Below, one piece after another: positions 5,842-13,766 of a DNA stretch of 54,782 bases. Origin of the DNA: Candidatus Liptonbacteria bacterium. GTDB taxonomy: Bacteria > Patescibacteriota > Minisyncoccia > UBA6257 > 2-01-FULL-56-20. The first letter of the stretch is position 1; each line of letters begins with the position of its first letter. The position numbers and the translations under genes are program-made. The stretch covers positions 1 to 54,782 of the forward strand of contig VGJV01000005.1 in the NCBI GenBank assembly GCA_016867315.1, given 5' to 3'. The notes beneath the pieces are model-generated. The model did not search any database, was not told the DNA's origin, and was given only the letters and a program-made list of their open reading frames with translations.

Positions 5842-7429
<1,588 letters not shown>

Positions 7430-7494
7430 AATGTTCAACTCCTCCACCCGAAGGTGGGTTTGTTGAACGGAAGTGTAGTTTTTACGAAACTACG

Positions 7495-7763
7495 GACCTC
7501 ATCTCGAAAATATTTCCATCTTGCGATATTGGCTTGTATGCCGCAGATCAAGAAACGACGACGAAGGTGTATGCCCATACTCCAAGGAGGAGTGCCGCAG
7601 AAATGAGGCATACAAGCCATATCCCTTTGGGTTGCAGCGGGTTTCCCCGGCCGCAGCGTTACTCCTCGGAGCTGTACCACGAGGCACTAATCTCCTCGTC
7701 GTGCCTTGCGTTGCGGAGAAACCTGCTCGCAACGCAGATCGGAAACATTTTCGAGATGAGGTC
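7495..7763 (-). other. Highly structured 16S leader domain
   Basis: 23-bp closing stem (7495-7517 vs 7741-7763, one mismatch) with several internal stems, e.g. GGCTTGTATGCC/GGCATACAAGCC. Confidence 0.65.
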
Positions 7764-7849: not shown

Positions 7850-7877
7850 AGTATAAACATATATAGAGGCCTGTCAA
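7850..7877 (-). promoter_or_regulatory. Sigma70-type promoter for the 16S rRNA
   Basis: TTGACA (7877-7872), 16-nt spacer, TATACT (7855-7850). Confidence 0.7.
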
Positions 7878-7971: not shown

Positions 7972-8568
7972 ATGGAAAAAGTGGCAATTTTCGACCTCGA
8001 TCACACTCTTCTCGACACCACCGGACTGAGGAAGGAAATGCTCCAAATTCTTCAAGGCTGCGGTCTCACAACCGCCGAGGCCAAATCCTCTCTTCAAGAT
8101 TTTATGGATAACCATGAAGGGAACTACGACATGCTGGGTCATTGCGAAGAACTCATAAAGGACAAAAAAATCTCTTCTCTGGATAAAATCCATACATTCC
8201 TTTCCTCTTCCTTCGAGAAACATATTATTCAAGACGCCAAAGAAGTGCTGCGAGAACTGAAGAAAAGAAATTATTATCTGATACTCCTCACCAAAGGCAT
8301 TGAGCGTTTTCAAAAAACAAAACTCGCTCAAACAGGCCTCGCCAATCTCTTCGACGAAATCCGAATCGTCGCGAAATTTAAAGAAGAAGCACTCGAAACG
8401 ATAAACGTGCCGGCAGGAAGTTATTTTATAAATGACAAACGGGAAGAAAGTGAACGCGTGATGCGCGTCCACCCCCATCTGAAATACATTCTCTTCGGAA
8501 AAACAGACGCATCGGAGACGATCATACAAATTACCCGACTCTCCGAACTTCTCGACTTGCTCCTTTGA
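7972..8568 (+). CDS. HAD-superfamily hydrolase
   Basis: AIFDLDHTLLDT motif I, LILLTKG motif II, FINDKREE motif IV; TG-G-TATAAT 6 nt before ATG. Confidence 0.88.
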   Translation: MEKVAIFDLDHTLLDTTGLRKEMLQILQGCGLTTAEAKSSLQDFMDNHEGNYDMLGHCEELIKDKKISSLDKIHTFLSSSFEKHIIQDAKEVLRELKKRNYYLILLTKGIERFQKTKLAQTGLANLFDEIRIVAKFKEEALETINVPAGSYFINDKREESERVMRVHPHLKYILFGKTDASETIIQITRLSELLDLLL

Positions 8569-8569
8569 G

Positions 8570-9547
8570 ATGGAACTCTTAGAACTCGGTAACATTCTCA
8601 GACATTTCCGGCTGCCTTCTCCTATTAGCACGGAAAGAATTTCCGCGGGGCTTATTAATCAAACCCATCTTGTTGAAACTGCCAATAGAAGCTATATCGT
8701 CCAGAAATTAAACCCGATTATAACCCCGGAGATATGTGGAGACGGACATACGATCTCCGATTATTTGAAAACCCAAGGCATTTCGGCTCCTCAATACTTT
8801 CTCTCCGAAATAGGTCTGCCATATTTTGAAACAGAAGAAGGACTTTGGAGAGTGCTTGAGAAGCTTCTCGGCAAATCCCTCGATGCGCCAAGTTCTTCCC
8901 ATGCATACAAAGCAGCGGCATTGTTAGGCAAAATCCATACTTCTCTTCGTAGCTTTTCCTATTCATGCAAAGGAAAACTCCCTGACTTCCATAACGTCCA
9001 AAAAATCCGTGAAGAACTTATAGAAGTTTCGACTAAGAAATACCAAGAAAATCTTGAGGAAGCGAAAAAACTTTCCGAGCTGACGTTGAAATGGATTGAA
9101 AAAGAAACCCTGCCAAAAGATGTCCCGAAACAATTGATACATGGCGACCCCAAGTTTTCCAACTTCCTTTTTGAAGGCGAAAGAGAAACAGGATTAATAG
9201 ATTTCGATACGTTCACTTCCCACAGCCCCCTCATTGATGTAGGCGACATGATGCGCTCCTGGTGTAATAGCACGCCTAAAGAAAACCCCCAGGCAAAATT
9301 CGAGAAAGAAATATATCAGGCCATCACGGAAGGATACAAAACAACCAATCCCCAATTTTCTGAAATGACCCTTATTCCCCGGGCATTTCGGCTGCTTGTT
9401 CTTGAACAGACGATGAGATACCTCAAAGATTGCTTTGAGGATAAGTACTACCCTTGGGACCCGCAAAAATTTCCTTCCCGTCTGGTTCGGAACAGTACCT
9501 ACGCCAAACGGCACATCGATCTTTATCGGCAAATAGAAGGTCTCTAA
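8570..9547 (+). CDS. APH/choline-kinase-fold sugar kinase, N-acetylhexosamine 1-kinase-like
   Basis: SAGLINQTHLV glycine-loop region, LIHGDPKFSNFLF catalytic loop, LIDFDT Mg-binding motif, DVGDMMRSWCN. Confidence 0.75.
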   Translation: MELLELGNILRHFRLPSPISTERISAGLINQTHLVETANRSYIVQKLNPIITPEICGDGHTISDYLKTQGISAPQYFLSEIGLPYFETEEGLWRVLEKLLGKSLDAPSSSHAYKAAALLGKIHTSLRSFSYSCKGKLPDFHNVQKIREELIEVSTKKYQENLEEAKKLSELTLKWIEKETLPKDVPKQLIHGDPKFSNFLFEGERETGLIDFDTFTSHSPLIDVGDMMRSWCNSTPKENPQAKFEKEIYQAITEGYKTTNPQFSEMTLIPRAFRLLVLEQTMRYLKDCFEDKYYPWDPQKFPSRLVRNSTYAKRHIDLYRQIEGL

Positions 9548-9615
9548 AGGAAAGAAGACGTCCGATTACTCGTACGTCTTCCCCTGTTTGTAAACTTCCC
9601 TGAATTGCGATCGAA

Positions 9616-10557
9616 TCAGACCTCTCGAAGATTCGGCCCTCGACTCGATCCCGGAATAGTGACTTTAATTCCCGCAGCTTTCGCTGCGTAGCGGAGACAT
9701 TCTCGAAGAATGCTTTCCTTGATCGTCGCAGGCTCTTCACCATGAACAACTAAGGCCTTAACGAGAGCACCGAGGAACCAATCTCCGGCCCCAATCGGAT
9801 ATACTCTCGCGCAAGCTTGTTTGAAAGCTTCGAAGCGACCAACGGACCCTCGCAAGGAATACACTCCCCCCTGGTCCGCTTGGGTTACCACCACGAGCTT
9901 CGGTCCGAATTGATGCACATCATCCAACTTGCTCCAGCCACAAGCAGTGAATTCATCTTGGTTAAGGACGAAAATATCCGCCATCCCCAACATCCGATGA
10001 AAAGGCTTCGGCTCGAGAGCACAGCGCTCGCAAAAAGTTCTATGCGGACCAAAGACTTTCACCGCGATATCTGGAGCTCCTAGCAGCGCCTCTGCAAAAG
10101 GGATTTCCATGATCCGAACCCCTGTGGCGACCGCCCAGGAACAGCGTTGCTCCCGCATAACCCGTTTCACCTTGTAAACTCTCGGCGCAATCTCTGCCTC
10201 GGAAAGTACTTCCCCGCGTTTCCCCGGATTTTTGAGGAACGGAAGTGATTCGTCGATGGGGAGAAAAGAGATGCTCGTCTCGTCGAGCGCCCGAATCGGA
10301 GTAAAGGGGATTTGCGGACTCCTTTTCCGTGCAATTTTGAGGAGTTGACTTCCCATACAATCGTCGGGCCCCACAAGTCCCAGAAGAAGCGGTTGCTCAC
10401 CCAATTTATGGAGTGCAATCGCCACATCTCCCGAAGACCCGCTGAAGCTCACATCGCATAGCGAAAGGGGAATCTTCTCGCTTCCATTTTTGGAGGAAAA
10501 AATGCCTAACATCTCCGGGTTTACGGAAAAACCCACTGCAATTTTTGTCCTATTCAA
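9616..10557 (-). CDS. PfkB/ribokinase-family carbohydrate kinase
   Basis: FSGSSGDVAIAL, FVLNQDE, VVVTQADQG, IGAGDWFLGAL signature; TTG start. Confidence 0.82.
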   Translation of the reverse strand: MNRTKIAVGFSVNPEMLGIFSSKNGSEKIPLSLCDVSFSGSSGDVAIALHKLGEQPLLLGLVGPDDCMGSQLLKIARKRSPQIPFTPIRALDETSISFLPIDESLPFLKNPGKRGEVLSEAEIAPRVYKVKRVMREQRCSWAVATGVRIMEIPFAEALLGAPDIAVKVFGPHRTFCERCALEPKPFHRMLGMADIFVLNQDEFTACGWSKLDDVHQFGPKLVVVTQADQGGVYSLRGSVGRFEAFKQACARVYPIGAGDWFLGALVKALVVHGEEPATIKESILRECLRYAAKAAGIKVTIPGSSRGPNLREV

Positions 10558-10579
10558 TCAAAACTCCTAATGGTTAAGG

Positions 10580-11314
10580 TTATTGTTTCGCCAGACGTTG
10601 GGCAATCTCCAACTCTGCCGGCGTGTTAATTCCCACTGCTTCGATAGGATCGGCTGGAACCGTAGCAATCAATGCTTTTTCCGCCACCGCGATTCCTACA
10701 GTATCCGTAAGGTAATATTCTCCCTGCGCATTTTTCGTGCCAACTTTGGGAAGCGTTCGCCAAAGCCAAGAGGCGTTGAAACAGAAAAAAGAGGGGTTCA
10801 CTTCCGTGATCTCCAATTCTTCATCACTCGCATCCTTTACTTCCACGATTTTCGCCACCTGCCCACCCTTGCGAATAATGCGGCCAAAGCTCGCGAGCGA
10901 AGCGCGGTCTCCTTCAAAGTCAGGGACTTTGATCGTCGCCATAGTGAGCGTTGGTTCGTCCTGTATCTGAGTAAGACGCAGAACGCGAAGCGTAGAAGAT
11001 TGTATGAACGGCATGTCGCCGTATACCACAATCACTGCTTCCGCATCGCCCGCCGCTTCTTTCGCACAATGCGCGGCATGCCCCGTCCCACGCGATTCTT
11101 TCTGAATCACATAGTCGTACCCACTCCCGAGCACACCGGGAATTTCACTATCCTGGCTCACAACAATGATGGGCTTTGGATCAATGTCCGTCTTCCGCAC
11201 CGAGCGAAGAAGTCTTTGAATCACCGTCTCACCACCCAGAGGAAGCAAAGCTTTCGTTTGCCCGTCCATTCGAGTAGCCTTTCCGGCTGCCAAAATTACA
11301 ATTCTCGTATTCAT
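10580..11314 (-). CDS. glmU: GlmU-like N-terminal uridyltransferase domain only (no hexapeptide acetyltransferase domain)
   Basis: VILAAGKATRM, QKESRGTGHA, VVYGDMP, FGRIIR..IVEVKDA, NAQGEYYLTD, GINTPAEL; the protein ends at 244 aa. Confidence 0.85.
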   Translation of the reverse strand: MNTRIVILAAGKATRMDGQTKALLPLGGETVIQRLLRSVRKTDIDPKPIIVVSQDSEIPGVLGSGYDYVIQKESRGTGHAAHCAKEAAGDAEAVIVVYGDMPFIQSSTLRVLRLTQIQDEPTLTMATIKVPDFEGDRASLASFGRIIRKGGQVAKIVEVKDASDEELEITEVNPSFFCFNASWLWRTLPKVGTKNAQGEYYLTDTVGIAVAEKALIATVPADPIEAVGINTPAELEIAQRLAKQ

Positions 11315-11511
11315 ATGATTAAGTCAAAGTTTAACTCAACTCAGAATACTCCAAAACCTCCCTGGGTCAAACCAAATCTCATCCACATCCCCAATTGCGA
11401 ACTGTGGATAAAAGAACATCCGATACGCCCCTTCCGACCATAAATCTGCAGAGAGGAAAGGGCGTATCGGATGGATTCACAATCTTCCCATAATGCTGCA
11501 CAATTCTTTCC

Positions 11512-12450
11512 ATGAAGCGGATCGTCACCATAGGCGGAGGCACCGGAACCTATACCGTTCTTACTGCCCTCAAGGAGCATTCGGTACATTTAAGCGCCAT
11601 CCTTTCCATGGCAGACGATGGGAAATCCACAGGGCTACTCCGAGACCAATACGGCGTACTTCCCGCCGGAGATGTGCGCCGTGGCCTCATTGCCCTCGCC
11701 CCGGAAGGCGAACTACTCCGGAAACTTTTCCTTTACAGATTCGATGAAGGCCTGCTTCAGGGTCATAATTTCGGAAACCTTTTTCTTTTGGCCCTAGAGA
11801 AAGTTACGGGGGATTTTTCAACCGCACTTCGGGAAGCGGCCCGCCTTTTGAATATTGAAGGAGAAATTGTCCCAGTGACGCTCGATAATGTCCGGCTCTA
11901 CGCCGAGCTCACCGATGGCACTCGACTCTATGGAGAACATCGAATAGACAAACCCAAGGAGAAAAATAGAGCGGGTATTAAAAAAGTATGGCTCGAGCCT
12001 GTTGCCCGATTGAACCCGGCCGTATCTCGAGTACTGCACAATGCAGACCTCATTATAATCGGTCCAGGAGATATCTACACGAGCCTCGTTCCTAATTTTC
12101 TTGTGAAAGGCATGAAAGAAGCGCTTCAAAAATCCCATGGCAAAGTAATCTACGTTGGCAATCTTATGACCAAATTTGGAGAAACCCAGGGATTCACTGC
12201 TTTGGACTTTTTGGCTGCCATCAAAAAATATTGCGGCGAGGATCGAGTCGATTATGCCCTCTGGAATAACAAGAGGCCAAACGCTAAAATCCTTGCTCGA
12301 TATACACGGGAACAATCCATATTGGTAAGTCCTCCGAAAGAAAAGAAGCAGGGGAAAACTAAATTTCTATATGCCGACCTTCTTGATTCAGGTCCGCTTA
12401 TCCGCCATCACCAACAAAAACTCGCCAAAGCCCTCCTTTCATTACTCTAA
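11512..12450 (+). CDS. yvcK: YvcK/GlmR (UPF0052/CofD-like) uridine-diphosphate-sugar-binding protein
   Basis: IVTIGGGTG, MADDGKSTG.LR...G.LP.GDVRR, GHNFGNL, IIGPGDIYTSL.PN. Confidence 0.9.
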   Translation: MKRIVTIGGGTGTYTVLTALKEHSVHLSAILSMADDGKSTGLLRDQYGVLPAGDVRRGLIALAPEGELLRKLFLYRFDEGLLQGHNFGNLFLLALEKVTGDFSTALREAARLLNIEGEIVPVTLDNVRLYAELTDGTRLYGEHRIDKPKEKNRAGIKKVWLEPVARLNPAVSRVLHNADLIIIGPGDIYTSLVPNFLVKGMKEALQKSHGKVIYVGNLMTKFGETQGFTALDFLAAIKKYCGEDRVDYALWNNKRPNAKILARYTREQSILVSPPKEKKQGKTKFLYADLLDSGPLIRHHQQKLAKALLSLL

Positions 12451-12884: not shown

Positions 12885-12908
12885 CCGCCCGTGCACACGG
12901 GCGGTTTT
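12885..12908 (+). terminator. Rho-independent terminator after rpmE
   Basis: CCGCCCGTG/CACGGGCGG stem followed by TTTT. Confidence 0.75.
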
Positions 12909-13037: not shown

Positions 13038-13766
13038 ATGACTCAAAGGTTAATTTTAGAAATAAGAGCGGGAGCGGGAGGTGATGAAGCCTCTATCTTT
13101 GCCGGAGACCTGGGCCGCATGTACCAGCGCTACGCCGCCCAAAAAGGCTGGGGATTTTCGATCCTCGATAAAAACGAAACCTCCCTTAATGGCTTCAAGT
13201 CGCTCGTCGCCGAGATCAAAGGGGAAGGAGCTTATGACGCCCTGAAACTGGAGTCCGGTGTGCACCGCGTGCAACGGGTGCCAAAAACGGAAAAGTCCGG
13301 CCGAATTCATACCTCAACTGCTTCCGTAGCCATTCTTCCTATAGTAGAAGCGAAAGAAGTAATAATAAATCAGGGAGATTTGGAAGTGACGTTTTCCCGT
13401 GCAGGAGGTCCCGGCGGTCAAAACGTGAACAAGGTGGAAACCGCGGTACGCATCCACCACAAACCGACGGGGATCGTCATCTCTTGCCGCGAAGAACGCT
13501 CTCAACATGCGAATCGCGAAAAAGCTATGGAAGTGCTCCGCGCAAAGCTCTACGAAATGGAGCAGCAAAAAAGCACGGGTTCAGTTACGGACATGCGCCG
13601 CGAACAAGTGGGTTCCGCCGACCGCTCCGAGAAAATCCGCACGTATAACTTCCCCGATGACCGCATCACTGATCACCGCTTCGGCGCCAAAGTACATAAT
13701 ATTGAAAAAGTTTTGGACGGAGATTTGGATGCACTCCTTAAAAAAATAGAGAAGTCTAAAGAATAG
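13038..13766 (+). CDS. prfA: Peptide chain release factor 1 lacking N-terminal domain 1
   Basis: [12 protein letters not shown], PxT motif (RVPKTE), [15 protein letters not shown]; 242 aa. Confidence 0.93.

Follow-up and report, generated by a model that had tools for sequence, protein, structure and literature searches.

Introduction

The N-acetylhexosamine 1-kinase NahK of Bifidobacterium longum (PDB 4WH1-3, 4OCJ) sits in the galacto-N-biose/lacto-N-biose (GNB/LNB; lnpABCD) catabolic cluster together with LNBP, GalT and GalE. Engineered shortcuts from N-acetylglucosamine (GlcNAc) to uridine diphosphate (UDP)-GlcNAc combine NahK with GlmU as standard (PMC10462111; bioRxiv 10.1101/2021.10.13.464265). 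The AmgK-MurU systems of Pseudomonas and Tannerella bypass de novo synthesis by means of an anomeric kinase of the aminoglycoside phosphotransferase (APH) fold and a sugar-1-phosphate uridylyltransferase; the kinase step follows immediately on that of the haloacid dehalogenase (HAD) phosphatase MupP, and Tannerella is an N-acetylmuramic acid (MurNAc) auxotroph that lives on scavenged wall sugar (PMC5790795, PMC5371407). Here we describe a five-gene cluster at positions 7972-12450 of a contig of 54,782 nucleotides (VGJV01000005.1, 'the window' in what follows) from a Candidatus Liptonbacteria bacterium, in which a NahK-family kinase lies ~1 kb from a GlmU reduced to its uridyltransferase domain (GlmU-N). 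The host is a Paceibacteria-type, Liptonbacteria-like member of Patescibacteria (or candidate phyla radiation, CPR); the window is one of the 14 contigs of its 879-kb genome, which is 99.5% complete.

Most Patescibacteria have peptidoglycan genes, and many are without the textbook GlmS-GlmM-GlmU route. Among the 300 Patescibacteria genomes that we sampled, a uridyltransferase-only GlmU is found without GlmS in 31, and the source of their UDP-GlcNAc is a gap in models of host dependence. We think it likely, on balance, that the kinase of the window feeds GlmU-N with GlcNAc-1-phosphate in this organism.

Results

A NahK-family kinase beside a uridyltransferase-only GlmU

Five open reading frames (ORFs) are present in the cluster exactly where a preliminary description of this DNA had placed them, and Pfam and NCBIfam searches assign all five to the families named there. 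The gene at 8570-9547 (plus strand) encodes a 325-residue protein of the APH fold (PF01636, 83 bits) that we assign to the NahK family of anomeric sugar kinases and predict to be an N-acetylhexosamine 1-kinase. When this protein was used as a single phmmer query against the PDB, Bifidobacterium NahK ranked first (E 8e-16), aligned nearly end to end at 23-24% identity, and the alignment reaches past the generic APH core (GxINxT, HxDxKxxN, IDxDT, DxGDxxR and a C-terminal ExxxRxLxD). A profile built from 41 family members aligns NahK over positions 4-332 of 334 with a score of 211 bits (E 2.4e-61), the next structure being the homoserine-kinase-like 2ppq at 4e-21; the family is large, with 161 cluster representatives at E<1e-30 in an exhaustive HMMER search. 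Residues D193, K195 and N198 of the kinase align to D208, K210 and N213 of NahK, the catalytic residues that were mutated to give dead enzyme (bioRxiv 10.1101/2021.10.13.464265), and they are invariant among the 41 homologues, as are D211 and D213 of the aligned Mg-binding IDxD motif. The AlphaFold (AF2) model of the kinase (predicted local distance difference test, pLDDT, 95.5) has NahK 4wh2 as its top match in Foldseek (template modelling score, TM, 0.88; root-mean-square deviation 2.7 Å), other kinases reaching a TM of at most 0.77. The kinase of the window and NahK have in common the fold, the family, the catalytic Asp/Lys/Asn and the family-specific C-terminal motifs, and the earlier label 'N-acetylhexosamine-1-kinase-like' is borne out by profile, catalytic motifs and fold alike.

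GlmU-N (10580-11314, minus strand, 244 residues) is a stand-alone uridyltransferase domain, predicted to act as a GlcNAc-1-phosphate uridylyltransferase; of the 452 positions of TIGR01173 it covers only 2-235 (167.5 bits). Against Escherichia coli GlmU (1hv9/1fwy) it aligns at E 1e-30 to residues 7-237 and keeps the equivalents of R18, K25, Q76, Y103-G-D105, E154, N169 and N227. Its last residue, 244, corresponds approximately to E. coli residue 241, at the start of the helical arm, and the beta-helix acetyltransferase is wholly missing, so that the claim that this GlmU kept only its uridyltransferase domain holds. By these alignments the active site is intact, down to the Asn in contact with GlcNAc O3; staphylococcal GlmU is weakened when the Asn equivalent to N169 is lost, and N-terminal-only GlmU proteins occur naturally in some bacteria (bioRxiv 10.64898/2026.06.23.733835). 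As in these proteins and in E. coli GlmU-Tr331, the pyrophosphorylase domain stands by itself with a conserved active site. The nucleotide-binding signature of GlmU-N (residues 9-17) is LAAGKATRM, with Ala in place of the second Gly of the LAAGKGTRM found in GlmU proteins, and Thr substitutes for the usual Pro ahead of the conserved Lys.

Amino-sugar metabolism of the genome

MurA is present in the genome (444 bits in a profile search), so the cell needs and consumes UDP-GlcNAc for its wall and can obtain UDP-MurNAc from it. Profile searches of the genome, each run with positive controls, returned no GlmS (the sole match is PurF), no hexapeptide-repeat protein (PF00132, left-handed beta-helix), no GNAT, no ROK kinase, no NagA and no NagB. 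No enzyme that could aminate a hexose, and none that could acetylate one, was detected in the genome, and hexosamine 6-phosphate is without an evident source. An N-acetylhexosamine must therefore be imported, and this double deficiency is the strongest support for salvage. Moreover, the genome holds no acetyltransferase partner of a detectable family for GlmU-N, and the acetylated sugar must for that reason, too, come from outside. The preliminary description had expected glmS, glmM and the acetyltransferase to be missing, and this is correct for GlmS, hexapeptide proteins and GNAT; it does not strictly hold for GlmM, as a phosphohexomutase of the GlmM/phosphoglucomutase (PGM) type is present (477 residues; best scores on the PgmG and archaeal GlmM models, 313 bits on the latter, under the cut-offs of both). 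Its suggestion that wall precursors are built from scavenged amino sugars is supported for this genome, which has kept MurA.

Elsewhere in the genome (G000:C6:17995-18936; L162:1486-2580, minus strand) lies a gene for a single-domain glycoside hydrolase of family 3 (GH3) whose top score, 179 bits against a cut-off of 207, is for the beta-N-acetylhexosaminidase NagZ. Its N-terminal segment is hydrophobic, suggesting that the protein is probably exported or membrane-anchored, and it could free GlcNAc from wall fragments or chito-oligosaccharides.

We propose that the cluster constitutes a UDP-GlcNAc salvage route in an amino-sugar auxotroph. Free GlcNAc would be taken up, perhaps after the NagZ-like GH3, as an exported enzyme, has released it extracellularly; the NahK-family kinase would phosphorylate it at the anomeric carbon, giving GlcNAc-alpha-1-phosphate, and GlmU-N would convert this with uridine triphosphate into UDP-GlcNAc. 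By analogy, this would be the engineered NahK+GlmU shortcut in mechanism. The YvcK/GlmR-family protein encoded next to GlmU-N and transcribed divergently from it would sense or supplement the uridyltransferase step, and the PfkB-family kinase and HAD enzyme of the cluster, as a version of a TrmB, sugar kinase, phosphatase and GlmU-N module, would most likely offer a parallel entry in which the sugar is phosphorylated at position 6 and either the phosphohexomutase of the genome or the HAD enzyme then produces the 1-phosphate.

Comparison with NahK and AmgK-MurU clusters

The setting of the kinase is unlike that of NahK: its neighbours are HAD, PfkB, GlmU-N and YvcK instead of a GNB/LNB catabolic cluster, and the context appears to be anabolic, since the partner of the kinase is a GlmU with uridyltransferase domain only and the genome does not make hexosamines de novo. 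The logic of AmgK-MurU, an APH-fold anomeric kinase with a sugar-1-phosphate uridylyltransferase, recurs here, and, like Tannerella, the organism would be an auxotroph dependent on scavenged wall sugar. The stop codon of the HAD gene lies 1 nt before the start codon of the kinase gene, an arrangement reminiscent of MupP, of which the HAD enzyme is at most a putative orthologue. The nucleotidyltransferase is of the GlmU type, GlmU models ranking at the top with 167 bits and MurU models not being among the 25 best NCBIfam matches listed, and the expected product is UDP-GlcNAc, since MurA is present, in place of UDP-MurNAc. The locus thus differs from AmgK-MurU in its acetyltransferase-less GlmU-type enzyme, in the target sugar, in having no de novo alternative and in the PfkB/HAD module. 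Of the parallel drawn earlier with NahK and AmgK/MurU, the kinase family and the placement of a kinase next to a uridylyltransferase stand, whereas membership of the MurU family and a GNB/LNB-type cluster do not. In the library of papers that was searched, none was found to link CPR with NahK or AmgK.

The kinase and GlmU-type enzymes in related genomes

We compared the genome (G000) with four others of its genus (G001 to G004; G and L numbers denote genomes and loci). The kinase family is present in four of the five genomes, at distances of 0-9 kb from GlmU-N: all five genes of the window recur in G003, and the distance is 9 kb in G002 and 3 kb in G004. Beside GlmU-N, G004 has the kinase as the only candidate supplier of substrate and G001 has only PfkB and HAD, while G000 and G003 have both and G002 combines the kinase with GlmS and a GNAT; each of the five genomes hence has at least one candidate supplier at this place, with three different suppliers patchily distributed over a single locus.

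Outside the genus, the closest homologue of the kinase is that of locus L030 (40% identity), where GlmS and YvcK are followed by two unrelated genes and then by the kinase. A further gene, 5 bp behind the kinase, encodes a nucleotidyltransferase without the acetyltransferase domain, which scores 208 bits against archaeal GlmU in the N-terminal half. In a quick maximum-likelihood tree of few genomes, rooted at the midpoint, the kinases of the window, G003 and L030 form one supported clade and those of G002 and G004 join L088 and L064 in another; the L083 kinase falls elsewhere, and L064, L083 and L088 all have GlmU-N within ~4 kb. The pairing of kinase and GlmU-type enzyme is thus seen with two lineages of nucleotidyltransferase and with no fewer than two of the kinase, a recurrence to which we give weight.

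The cluster lies in an island between a 16S rRNA gene and a release-factor gene, and the genes that the island contains vary from genome to genome within the genus. Such variability would be expected if the adjacency were incidental, the kinase acting on MurNAc (as AmgK does), on another sugar or on a non-sugar such as homoserine without feeding GlmU-N. The best NCBIfam matches of the kinase are indeed homoserine kinase models (69 bits, far under their cut-offs), and the family is without conserved context in other phyla. These points are opposed by the profile score for NahK, 40 orders of magnitude above that for the homoserine-kinase-like structure, by the occurrence of two kinase lineages, spread over three or more clades of the family's tree, beside GlmU-type nucleotidyltransferases, and by MurA, which makes UDP-MurNAc obtainable from UDP-GlcNAc; we judge an incidental adjacency to be highly improbable.

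In G002 the same locus (L025, G002:C12, 974-11683, from 16S rRNA to release factor) carries a different island, with genes for the NahK-like kinase, an inositol monophosphatase (IMPase)-family phosphatase, GNAT, phosphoketolase, acetyl-CoA synthetase, GlmS, TrmB and GlmU-N; GlmS, GNAT, acetyl-CoA synthetase, phosphoketolase and TrmB lie between the kinase and GlmU-N. The phosphoketolase (934 residues) is fused to a CoA_binding_2 domain, an unusual fusion, and the whole resembles a pathway for making hexosamine de novo combined with supply of the acetyl donor. The GNAT, for which a PDB search gave no clear GNA1 relative, is at most a candidate GNA1-type enzyme. Compared with the same-genus loci L025-L028, GlmU-N of the window is 44-57% and the kinase 28-43% identical, the values for right-flank genes being 87-90% (release factor and an ADK-like gene) and 56% (a tRNA synthetase); the higher divergence of the island genes suggests gene replacement or fast evolution at the locus.

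The PfkB/HAD module

The gene downstream of GlmU-N on the same strand (9616-10557, minus strand; 313 residues; PF00294, 49.7 bits) encodes a divergent PfkB-family kinase. It begins with a TTG codon preceded by AGGAG and is separated from GlmU-N by a gap of 22 nt, and the two genes form one operon. The GAGDWF motif (with the GAGD anion-hole/catalytic residues) and the NxxE motif are conserved among 27 homologues, and the subfamily was found in Patescibacteria only. The HAD gene (7972-8568, plus strand) encodes a phosphohydrolase or phosphomutase of the HAD superfamily (C1-cap HAD_2 type, 198 residues; PF13419, 38 bits; TIGR02253, 45 bits) in which motifs I-IV (DxD, T, K, D; residues D8, D10, T107, K137 and D155) are conserved with CPR homologues.

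The preliminary description treated PfkB and HAD as completing the kinase cluster, a view that comparison does not support, as they belong to a separate, recurrent module: G001 keeps HAD, PfkB and GlmU-N in the absence of both GlmS and the NahK-like kinase. Among the five genomes of the genus, only G000, G001 and G003 have the PfkB subfamily, always beside GlmU-N; it also adjoins GlmU-N in G081 and lies near GlmS in G319. HAD adjoins PfkB and/or GlmU-N in L027, L029, L064, L088, L150-152 and L155. The recurring gene strings are TrmB, PfkB, HAD (L150-152), HAD, PfkB (G338), IMPase, TrmB, PfkB (G276) and GlmS, TrmB, IMPase, PfkB (G319); in G081 TrmB, PfkB and GlmU-N overlap and are followed by a 202-residue ORF without a Pfam match (L121), which aligns weakly to HADs (21% identity) and is without the conserved motif III Lys. 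In L064 and L088 the operon reads ROK, TrmB, HAD, GlmU-N, a ROK kinase taking the place of PfkB. In L151 (9115-9636) and L152 (9561-10082), both from Paceibacterota, a stand-alone 173-residue hexapeptide-repeat protein lies 3-4 kb from TrmB-PfkB-HAD, and it is possible that this is a separate acetyltransferase half.

These contexts suggest that PfkB and HAD provide another entry, independent of the NahK-like kinase, to the product that the kinase would supply. PfkB could even be the main supplier of GlmU-N by phosphorylating GlcNAc at C6, GlcNAc 6-phosphate being turned into the 1-phosphate by the PGM/GlmM-type mutase or by HAD, with the NahK-like kinase in an accessory role or acting on another sugar; such a route from GlcNAc 6-phosphate to GlcNAc 1-phosphate would be eukaryote-like. 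It would fit the shared operon, the overlap of PfkB with the start of GlmU-N in the distant G081, the gene content of G001, the replacement by ROK, which suggests an ordinary sugar 6-kinase role, and the presence of the phosphohexomutase with its score on the archaeal GlmM model. Yet the PfkB substrate is not readable from sequence or fold, the subfamily occurs in only 4 of the 300 sampled genomes, and G004 has the NahK-like kinase and GlmU-N with no such PfkB and no GlmS. We regard PfkB as main supplier as unlikely; the idea is compatible with the salvage reading, and both routes may run in parallel.

A search by fold gave no informative nearest neighbour from which to name the PfkB substrate: the AF2 model (pLDDT 95.4) has a generic ribokinase fold, and in Foldseek it matches many ribokinase-family members at TM 0.65-0.73, HldA among them at 0.72. 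This last match, and the fact that PfkB-family enzymes often use sugar phosphates, as do HldE, PfkB, LacC and ribose-1-phosphate kinase, bring to mind heptose activation by HldE/GmhB, where the same three classes, a PfkB kinase, a HAD phosphatase and a nucleotidyltransferase, stand side by side. By this analogy PfkB would phosphorylate a hexosamine 6-phosphate at the anomeric position to the 1,6-bisphosphate, and HAD or IMPase would remove the 6-phosphate to leave the 1-phosphate for GlmU-N, with no need for a mutase. In most contexts the PfkB subfamily is paired with a phosphatase, either HAD (the window, G001, G003, L150-152, L155) or the unrelated IMPase (L154, L156), and the ORF beside PfkB in L121 is weakly HAD-like. 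However, PfkB and HAD of the window show no specific similarity to the HldE/HldA and GmhB enzymes (rfaE_dom_I is not among the NCBIfam matches of PfkB), the TM values are alike for many ribokinase-fold enzymes, the adjacency of IMPase, PfkB and TrmB to glyceraldehyde-3-phosphate dehydrogenase in L154 could equally mark a switch between glycolysis and gluconeogenesis, and the bypass would start from a hexosamine 6-phosphate, which has no evident source in this genome. We hold such a bypass to be very unlikely. That TrmB, a kinase (PfkB or ROK), HAD or IMPase and GlmU-N together make up an undescribed, GlmM-free route to GlcNAc-1-phosphate, whether through a 1,6-bisphosphate kinase/phosphatase pair or with HAD as a phospho-N-acetylglucosamine mutase, is a broader proposition that we consider quite doubtful; if true, it would explain wall building in those GlmU-N-bearing CPR genomes, about half of the total, that are without GlmS.

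As no PfkA-type phosphofructokinase was found in the genome, the PfkB of the cluster might alternatively be the organism's phosphofructokinase. This is less likely, given that the gene for another PfkB paralogue immediately precedes that for a class II fructose-bisphosphate aldolase (the pair lies at G000:C4:43683-44447 and the gene after it, or at 1339-2334 and 2415-3296 of L159). A glycolysis gap is often reported for CPR, and this second kinase may be a PfkB-type phosphofructokinase that closes it.

Distribution across Patescibacteria

Stand-alone GlmU-N occurs in 65 of the 300 sampled genomes, in frames almost all of 245-330 residues, and is accompanied by GlmS in 34 of these 65. The kinase family reaches a full-length score in 2 of the 300 (G094 and G179); it is found in only 1 of the 65 GlmU-N genomes and is absent from all 40 GlmU-N neighbourhoods examined. 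Truncation of GlmU is thus older and far more widespread than the kinase. With GlmU-N so common and the kinase so rare, the kinase is not the cause of the truncation, as had been suggested at the outset, and the co-occurrence of the two that was to be expected across CPR fails; their arrangement is specific to this lineage.

YvcK and the flanks of the cluster

The YvcK/GlmR-family protein (CofD-related; 11512-12450, plus strand; 312 residues) scores 292.5 bits on TIGR01826, above the curated cut-off of 196, over positions 1-308 of 310. YvcK is the most frequent functional neighbour of GlmU-N, lying at most 7 kb away in 8 of 40 sampled CPR loci and likewise in G003, G019 and L030. Bacillus GlmR binds UDP-GlcNAc and activates GlmS (PMC7525490, PMC6171935), and Listeria GlmR serves as an accessory uridyltransferase (PMC10128056). 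The gene of the window is not in a yvcJ-glmR-yvcL operon; since the genome is without a GlmS to regulate, only a sensing or uridyltransferase role is possible, and by analogy YvcK probably senses or supplements UDP-GlcNAc formation.

The divergent intergenic region between GlmU-N and YvcK (11315-11511, 197 bp) contains one weak promoter-like site per strand (11370-11343, minus; 11476-11504, plus), both being consensus matches only. A terminator-like GC-rich hairpin with a T tract follows YvcK (12885-12904, plus strand; 8-bp stem with 7 GC pairs, then TTTTGTT). To the left, the neighbour of the cluster is a complete 16S rRNA gene (5842-7429, minus strand; Rfam, 1357 bits); about 420 nt upstream of it lies a promoter-like site (7850-7877, minus strand; TTGACA, 16 nt, TATACT; 11 of 12 consensus matches), and the ORFs at 6543-6884, 6898-7173 and 7286-7606 inside it, which are without a Pfam match, are probably not genes. 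To the right, the release-factor gene (13038-13766, plus strand) is an ORF of 242 codons whose product matches the RF-1 domain and only positions 101-194 of the 194 of PCRF; it is without the usual N-terminal third, unless the gene start lies upstream in another frame.

Discussion

Our analysis favours a salvage route in which a NahK-family kinase supplies GlmU-N, and several results weigh against it. G001 (96% complete) has GlmU-N and MurA-type needs with neither GlmS nor a NahK-like kinase, and the kinase is therefore dispensable for at least one relative; G002 has the kinase together with GlmS, so that the kinase is not merely a substitute for de novo synthesis. The pattern within the genus comes from five related genomes, and among the 31 sampled GlmU-N genomes without GlmS none has the kinase family at full-length score, one showing a weak 59-bit match. 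No GlcNAc transporter was identified in the genome, and the absences of GlmS, NagA, NagB, ROK, hexapeptide proteins and GNAT rest on profile searches of a draft in 14 contigs. Outside CPR, where the kinase family occurs in Cyanobacteria, Myxococcota, Gammaproteobacteria and others, neighbour clustering in ~80 genomes from many phyla and a Pfam tally of 129 flanking proteins revealed no recurrent neighbour; with no partner shared in these 80 genomes, context outside CPR was ruled out as a guide to the function of the kinase.

The truncated GlmU is in itself already familiar, and all substrates named here are predictions from sequence. Nevertheless, the genome is an unusually clean case, its NagZ-like hydrolase, NahK-family kinase and half-GlmU making up a route from GlcNAc to UDP-GlcNAc that is complete on paper. 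If the proposed route is true, the NahK+GlmU shortcut of glycoengineering would have a counterpart in nature and GlcNAc would be a specific nutrient to supply in culturing attempts, which bears on the host dependence of wall-bearing CPR cells.

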